A program made the position numbers and the translations under genes. DNA of 63,976 nucleotides, counting the filler, from Neolecta irregularis DAH-3 (Eukaryota), in assembly GCA_001929475.1 (NCBI GenBank). It is 21 parts of 21 records of this genome, joined end to end, with 100 filler letters (N's around TTAATTAATTAA, not from the genome) between each part and the next. Parts side by side here need not be neighbours in the genome. Positions count along the whole stretch, not along the records: positions 35,369 to 37,463 come from LXFE01001767.1; 20 more parts are not named here. The stretch is one strand, 5' to 3'. This document shows, piece after piece, positions 35,952-36,409 of this stretch. The notes under the pieces were generated by a model. That model was given only the letters and a program-made list of their open reading frames with translations. It searched no databases and was not told where the DNA came from. Within the stretch, counting starts at the first letter, position 1. Every line of letters begins with the position of its first letter.

Positions 35952-36409
35952 AGTAAGCGATACGTTGTAATTCAAACCAATCTTGACTCTTGTTTGAACC
36001 TTCGTTTCGCATCAAACAAGATCAAGCAACTCGGGAATTGTAATAACGGCCTCTCGACAATAAGTCAATAAACTGACTAGTGCAGTGTTCCATATGTTGA
36101 CAATCTTCGTGAATGTTTTGAACCAAAAGACATCAAGATACGCGATTGTTAAATTTCATCTGGCCTTCTTTGCTTACCCCGAGGAAAGCAGAGGCAGTCC
36201 ATTCCTCCGTTTCTTCATTCGTGAGACTCCAAACGCCATCTTTCTGACTGAATTCTTCTGTTTGTTTCAAACCCACACTTATCGAACAGAAGATTGGGAT
36301 TATCGCGACTATAGACAGCGACGAATGTGGTTTTGTCCCATTCAATTGTTGTAATGCTTTGCGGTAATCGATTCTTAATATCCCAAAACACAGCTTTTGC
36401 AAGATGAAC
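35952..36409 (-). pseudogene. PRP8: PRP8 gene fragment (RT-like/thumb region), frameshifted
   Basis: [83 protein letters not shown]. Confidence 0.9.

Follow-up and report, generated by a model that had tools for sequence, protein, structure and literature searches.

Two PRP8 pseudogene fragments in repeat-rich contigs of Neolecta irregularis DAH-3 as probable remains of an unprocessed, multi-copy family

Two short stretches of DNA from Neolecta irregularis DAH-3 derive from PRP8, and both retain the start of the same GT..AG segment. We take them, with somewhat better than even confidence, as what is left of a family of PRP8 fragments in many copies, unprocessed pseudogenes that were copied as DNA with their intron kept. 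Public sequencing runs contain many variants of the fragment, longer sister copies are found among them, and the lesions of the two copies in the window are independent. An earlier note on this DNA had taken the point at which both copies seem to leave PRP8 for a shared breakpoint of gene-fragment capture. This tempting misreading is corrected here, as the “breakpoint” at GT is best read as a retained ultra-short intron, which would mark DNA-level and not RNA-level copies.

Sequence setting and searches

The window, that is, the whole stretch of 63,976 nucleotides that was analysed, is made up of 21 contigs of 1.1-7.5 kb, whose joints are N44-TTAATTAATTAA-N44 spacers. Copy 1 lies in contig 12 (35369-37463, 2,095 nt) and copy 2 in contig 19 (57880-59460), which are 2.1 and 1.6 kb long, respectively. 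Most of the other contigs carry ordinary genes, such as those of NXF/Mex67, Sas10, a PPR protein, BOP1/Erb1, SAS3, Dim1 and CMS1, and the window also has genes of ribosomal protein S15/S19, fimbrin, EFR3 and SLS1 and Ty3-type retroelements. This gene set points to a fungus, as do a SAS3 search, which gave only distant fungal matches (46-62% identity over about 30% of the query), and the PPR protein, whose nearest clusters in a protein atlas are fungal.

Seven PRP8 proteins were used as tblastn queries against all 21 contigs, and PRP8 similarity was found in contigs 12 and 19 only. The protein matches of pieces A to C of copy 1 were taken against PRP8 chains of solved spliceosomes and are given in human PRP8 residue numbering. 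The protein collection holds no close paralogue, the best identity being 79% among 493 longer and 13 similar-length matches. Parts of contig 12 are carried by only two public runs, both of one study and neither listed as RNA, here X1 and X2, which were read as Logan contigs and whose kind was guessed as “DNA?”; X2 comes from a second organism of that study, while X1 may be the source sample of the window and is thus not independent support. A library of papers contained none on a PRP8 pseudogene or on PRP8 with Pack-MULE, and a wider search of it returned only histone H3 and DNA-methyltransferase cases.

Copy 1 is a decayed piece of PRP8

The assignment of 35952..36409 to PRP8 by the earlier note is borne out by three minus-strand pieces that match PRP8 with E-values down to 1e-15 to 1e-19 and that lie in three different reading frames. 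Piece A (36266-36409, minus strand) corresponds to human residues 1147-1193 with E 1.5e-18 (best chain E 1.8e-19). Piece B (36136-36264, minus strand) corresponds to human residues 1207-1244 (match at 36136-36252, E 3.6e-6), to residues 687-727 of P0072 and to residues 872-913 of P0016; the top row of its search was a designed repeat protein (E 2.7e-6), in which no stretch passed alone. Piece C (35964-36116, minus strand) corresponds to human residues 1256-1304 (match at 35964-36113, E 1.7e-15), is one codon short and contains one in-frame TGA, which was read as X. Two open reading frames also match Pfam PF10597, with E 1.2e-9 and 5.7e-6.

The fragment is about 600 nt long (36409-35810) and not 458 nt as it had been delimited, because PRP8 coding resumes past a 41-nt segment. 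This resumed part, piece D (35810-35922, minus strand), matches residues 849-887 of P0072 by tblastn at 35920-35810 (E 4.9e-9; P0048 gives E 8.5e-9); its frame is interrupted by two TGAs, and 2 codons are missing from it as a gap.

The gap from piece A to piece B corresponds to about 9-10 lost codons, and that from B to C to about 3. Two bases past the 41-nt segment the sequence jumps to P-N-L-Y codons, which is a deletion of about 58 codons before piece D (P0072 residues 791-848). The codon missing from piece C is restored in other copies, found as run contigs, by an AAG insertion at 36017. Copy 1 is, judged by its reading frames, a pseudogene, because its frame shifts three times or more, three TGA codons stop it, and four internal deletions break it; the uninterrupted frame over the conserved region that a functional PRP8 has is absent from it. 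Neither end of copy 1 is that of the gene: at 36410, where upstream homology stops, a GC-rich stretch cuts it off, and at about 35810 an unrelated repeat does so.

In two PRP8 proteins of Coemansia, P0012 and P0078, an intein directly follows ..P-P-V-I-F-Y, at a distance of about 11 residues beyond the K|M site where the 41-nt segment lies. This position falls in the 58-codon segment deleted from copy 1, which is probably a coincidence.

A probable short intron in place of a breakpoint

The 41-nt segment (35923-35963, minus strand) starts with GTATCG, ends with TAG and separates the K codon from the M codon in phase 0. Homology had been thought to end inside this intron donor in copy 1, but the GT..AG segment is complete there and PRP8 coding lies beyond it. 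Nor do the two copies break at a common point, since only copy 2 has a junction at this place, and that junction belongs to a local head-to-tail duplication. What the copies have in common are the first 12 nt of the segment.

By their size and by the 5' hexamers of the copies, which match introns of SAS3 and BOP1, the 41 nt resemble an ordinary intron of the host genome. SAS3 has a 37-nt GT..AG intron (21207-21243) with the 5' end GTAAGG, across which two protein alignments are contiguous in the query. BOP1 has a 38-nt intron at 17277-17314, bracketed by consecutive Pfam profile coordinates, and a 34-nt intron at 17826-17859; these start with GTATCG and GTATCT, identical to the hexamers of copy 1 and copy 2, respectively. 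BOP1 is broken into many small exons, and the genome appears unusually intron-dense and short-introned for a fungus. The first 23 nt of the segment occur once in the window, on which ground a repeated “introner” was rejected.

The intron site was also read by eye in the runs, from the 30-letter consensus of loose ends. Three X1 contigs have the sequence of the window as far as the end of the 41 nt, after which they read M-P-S-H-F-P-P-V-I-G in frame. In three X2 contigs ..N-Y-K is joined straight to M-P-S-R-F-P-P-A-V, with exactly the GT..AG segment absent; as the library kind of X2 is a guess (“DNA?”), these contigs could be DNA of an intron-less copy or gene, or cDNA. PRP8 proteins of the collection have the uninterrupted motif G-L-N-S-K-M-P-S-R-F-P-P-A-V. 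All 80 ascomycete-type PRP8 loci that were taken from metagenomes read through the K|M site without an intron, so that a K|M intron in the parent gene is lineage-specific at best. Introns elsewhere are found in 10 of these 80 loci, after residues 306-308, 326 or 349 of P0009, and the exact exon-plus-intron pattern had 0 matches in metagenome contigs. The 41 nt may be taken as a putative intron of the PRP8 gene from which the copies descend in this organism.

Processed pseudogenes are recognised by absence of introns, a poly-A tract and a target-site duplication. A processed pseudogene or retrocopy is contradicted here by the intron-like segment in copy 1 and by its start in copy 2. The DNA-level origin that had been proposed for the fragments is supported, since both copies retain the start of the same putative intron.

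A second copy with its own rearrangement

Copy 2 (58164-58313) is a real second copy, as had been claimed. Its segment 58164-58258 matches 35972-36070 with 82.4% identity over 102 nt (E 2.5e-22), and 58258-58313 matches 35952-36007 with 85.7% identity over 56 nt (E 1.5e-12). As a protein it is weak on its own, with E 0.047 against PRP8 and a match to Pfam PF10597 (E 3.4e-4) that is below the cut-off.

The copy is a 114-nt unit repeated head-to-tail in 1.3 copies, with its junction 12 nt into the intron. The first part (58258-58313, minus strand) encodes K-V-Q-T-R-V-N-I-D-L-N-S-K (58313-58270), followed by the first 12 intron nt (58269-58258, GTATCT...). The second part (58164-58257, minus strand) is the PRP8 segment that normally stands upstream, joined head-to-tail to the first; it encodes ..I-T-I-P-K-L-L-D-L-L-V-R-C-E-T-K-V / R-V-K-I-G-L from 58257 to 58164 and has a 6-nt deletion. 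The claim that copy 2 ends at the same place as copy 1 therefore stands in part: twelve intron bases are indeed followed by a junction, but what comes after it is an upstream piece of the same PRP8 segment.

Aligned with each other, copies 1 and 2 agree at 131 positions and differ by 9 transitions and 7 transversions, with gaps at 11 positions. The codon that is gone from copy 1 is still there in copy 2, which in turn is without 6 nt that are present in copy 1, so the two copies decayed independently from a better-preserved ancestor.

As to the idea of a gene-derived satellite, copy 2 has only 1.3 units of 114 nt and TRF reports no array, and the summed depth of X1 contigs is 14,000-25,000 over the 114-nt unit against about 5,000-6,700 over the middle of the fragment. 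Copy 2 is directly adjoined by C-rich minisatellites at 57880-58163 (33 nt x 2.8 and 27 nt x 7.0), of which the 27-nt one begins where the PRP8 part stops. About 900 nt from copy 2, where contig 19 ends, an MBOAT acyltransferase exon (59244-59459, minus strand, E 2.9e-5, just below the cut-off) ends with a GTAAGT donor and may belong to a real gene or be a fragment.

A family of variants in public sequencing runs

The amplification of the fragment that the earlier note had supposed agrees with the many variant contigs found both in a run of the same organism and in X2, whose source is another organism of that study. Of the run contigs that can be placed on contig 12 (2,095 nt) with an identity of at least 80%, 431 are from X1 and 82 from X2, and the X1 contigs fall into classes of at least 99% (72), 95-99% (127), 90-95% (155) and below 90% identity (77). 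At single PRP8 sites another letter is carried by 19 (35991), 16 (36319), 12 (36334) and 10 (36360) distinct X1 contigs. Summed depth in X1 is 4,800-25,000 over the PRP8 part versus 338-622 for the contigs identical to the window, although contig counts and summed depths of Logan are not copy numbers. The amplified fragments thus amount, in a rough reading for this reason, to tens of variants, with related copies in the second organism.

Longer and differently broken sister copies exist, because run contigs pass the ends of copy 1 or show other deletion joints. PRP8 sequence past both ends of copy 1 is present in some run contigs. In three X1 contigs PRP8 coding goes on upstream of 36410, where ..L-M-K-H-D shares the frame of V-H-L-A-K..; a TGA is present in the longest of these three. 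One X1 contig has another internal deletion, joining 36008 to 36290.

An artefact of assembly or sampling, by which native-PRP8 reads would have been fused with repeats into chimeras or DNA of another organism would have entered as contamination, is very improbable. The assembly is very fragmented, as the number and size of the contigs attest, which would favour such errors; but the frameshifts, stops and deletions are located inside the PRP8 part itself, the intron is of the same style as those of the window's own genes, and an X1 contig identical to the window, from what may be the source sample, bridges 35777-35997, over both the repeat/PRP8 boundary and the intron.

Multiplication without any vehicle is rather improbable. 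By this account a PRP8 pseudogene would have undergone repeated segmental or ectopic and local tandem duplication, or would have been copied repeatedly from the gene. The local head-to-tail duplication in copy 2, the separate deletion joint of the X1 contig (36008 to 36290) and the differing flanks of the two copies speak for it, but up to 19 distinct contigs at one site, with identities from at least 99% to less than 90%, are many for an unaided piece of 0.6 kb.

A further reading goes beyond these data and is a long shot. The PRP8 exon-intron fragment would travel inside an uncharacterised mobile element or have seeded a satellite, and dozens of copies would have spread in two or more related organisms; its transcripts would feed small-RNA or antisense regulation of an essential spliceosome gene, and the intron-less X2 contigs would be spliced transcripts of such copies.

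Flanks of the copies and signs of a carrier

The C-terminal side of the PRP8 homology in copy 1 is ended by an unrelated repeat of very high depth (35369-35809), over which summed X1 depth is 27,000-202,000 versus 4,800-25,000 over the PRP8 part, and which has no Pfam, tRNA or Rfam match. On the other side, upstream PRP8 is replaced by a GC-rich, G-skewed flank (36410-36790), where the depth of run contigs is 0-7,000. Farther upstream of copy 1 there is a 107-aa open frame (36953-37273, minus strand) with a weak match to the PAN/Apple domain (E 1.5e-4), and the run contigs show many length variants, seen as skips, across 36983-37288.

Shared flanks, which a common carrier should have left beside the two copies, fail to appear: contigs 12 and 19 have nothing in common at E 1e-5 or better except the PRP8 part. 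A common minisatellite beside both copies was rejected, as the best shared word of the GC-rich flanks is 11-13 nt (E 0.02-0.3). The search for inverted repeats, in contigs that are short and with copies truncated inside PRP8, gave a single pair of 20 nt with 80% complementarity for contig 12 and nothing for contig 19. No transposase, helicase or other transposon domain was found in the 65 open reading frames of at least 35 aa of the two contigs. Rfam matches in the window and tRNAs in contig 12 numbered 0. No carrier element of the kind that had been supposed was found, as neither contig showed a TIR or a transposase or helicase domain, and the ends of a carrier cannot show in the window, because both copies are truncated inside PRP8.

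These observations bear on a single capture of the PRP8 fragment by a Pack-type TIR element or a Helitron, with one end inside the intron donor and subsequent amplification, which we consider unlikely, but less so than multiplication without a vehicle. The copy-number signal is hard to reach without some vehicle, and other gene pieces lie in the same window. The supposed common capture end is, however, absent in copy 1, where the intron is whole and PRP8 goes on, and sister copies reach beyond both ends of copy 1. The lack of a flank common to both copies also counts against it, as do the missing TIR, beyond the one 80% pair in contig 12, and the missing transposase or helicase domain, all within contigs of only 2.1 and 1.6 kb that hold truncated copies, so that a carrier may lie outside them. 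Helitrons have 5'-TC ... CTRR-3' ends with a 3' hairpin and insert between A and T.

RIP leaves a signature of high TpA/ApT, low (CpA+TpG)/(ApC+GpT) and an excess of transitions. The corresponding indices here are 0.55 for TpA/ApT and 1.38 for (CpA+TpG)/(ApC+GpT), the two copies differ by nearly as many transversions (7) as transitions (9), and 73 of the 140 listed X1 changes are transitions, so that a RIP-mutated family is not indicated.

Gene fragments elsewhere in the window

Other gene fragments had been reported from the window, of which one, and probably a second, was recovered. Contig 3 (6149-7799) carries a degraded Argonaute with an L2 domain (7658-7798), a Mid domain (7087-7533) and a Piwi piece (6910-7083) that covers only profile positions 167-214, and it also has a 139-nt direct repeat (6429-6567 and 7283-7421, 89% identical). 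Contig 14 has a lone protein-kinase piece (44013-44225, minus strand), which covers positions 177-212 of Pfam Pkinase with an E-value of 4.4e-6 that does not reach the cut-off, and no other recognised gene beside it; this is probably the fragment that had been called GSK3. Gene fragments in repeats seem common here, because these Argonaute and kinase pieces are also present, and this suggests that they accumulate in the repeats of this genome. Fragments of the PRP8 type can lead to errors when genes are annotated or copy numbers estimated, and when PRP8 is used for phylogeny or surveyed for inteins.

Some other repeats of the window are of a different kind. In contig 13 (37564-41995), a 201-nt stretch just before an N10 gap (38396-38596) recurs at 41536-41736 (98.5%), and 41471-41536 repeats the contig's initial 66 nt with 100% identity, which could be a scaffolding duplication or a tandem structure. 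Two Ty3-type remnants with integrase/chromodomain, at 56698-57458 and 9261-10021, have 76.8% identity over 763 nt, and contig 20 holds a nearly intact gag-pol frame of 990 aa.

Proposed history of the family

The preferred explanation, a family of unprocessed pseudogene fragments copied as DNA, would begin with the duplication, as genomic DNA, of a stretch of the organism's own PRP8, at least the region that matches human residues ~1137-1400. This stretch would have included the native 41-nt intron between K and M of G-L-N-S-K / M-P-S-R-F. The duplicated copy would then have been amplified to roughly tens of variants, and we infer that this happened as a passenger of repeated DNA, either a mobile element or a tandem array. 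Decay would then have affected each copy independently, through frameshifts, stops, internal deletions, the local head-to-tail duplication of a 114-nt unit and the cutting short of copies by other repeats, and the copies presumably have no function.

Comparison with known systems

Unprocessed, that is, duplicated, pseudogenes keep the exon-intron structure of the parent, and the PRP8 copies probably resemble them in this; they also have no full open reading frame, with frameshifts, stops and deletions. Such pseudogenes are usually present in one or few copies close to the parent, whereas the PRP8 fragments occur as many variants dispersed in repeats, one of which was rearranged into a head-to-tail unit.

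Pack-MULEs and Helitrons of plants multiply genomic fragments of genes, introns included, in repeated DNA. The multiplication of a PRP8 genomic fragment with its putative intron is similar, but the TIR plus TSD of Pack-MULEs, or the TC..CTRR ends with hairpin of Helitrons, were not found in these two short contigs with their truncated copies, and what had been claimed as a capture end common to both is the probable intron. Gene-fragment capture by these plant elements is also described in a paper on a fungal case (PMC3538342).

The fungal cases concern histone H3. In Pyrenophora tritici-repentis it was transduplicated by hAT transposons, with a defined carrier that has TIRs and a hAT transposase (PMC3538342). 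In Pseudocercospora fijiensis, histone H3 was also amplified by hAT elements with a defined carrier, and the copies are RIP-mutated and without introns, which indicates transcript capture (PMC6710886). Both accounts describe tens or hundreds of copies in the fungal repeat fraction, most of which are inactive (PMC3538342; PMC6710886). For the PRP8 copies no carrier was found in their two contigs, in contrast to the hAT/H3 cases. Unlike the H3 copies of P. fijiensis (PMC6710886), those of PRP8 keep a putative intron, so that they would have been made from DNA, and their indices are not RIP-like. With the two histone H3 cases they share that part of an essential and normally low-copy housekeeping gene was multiplied in repeats (PMC3538342; PMC6710886), and PRP8 would join the short list of essential housekeeping genes multiplied in the repeat fractions of fungi.
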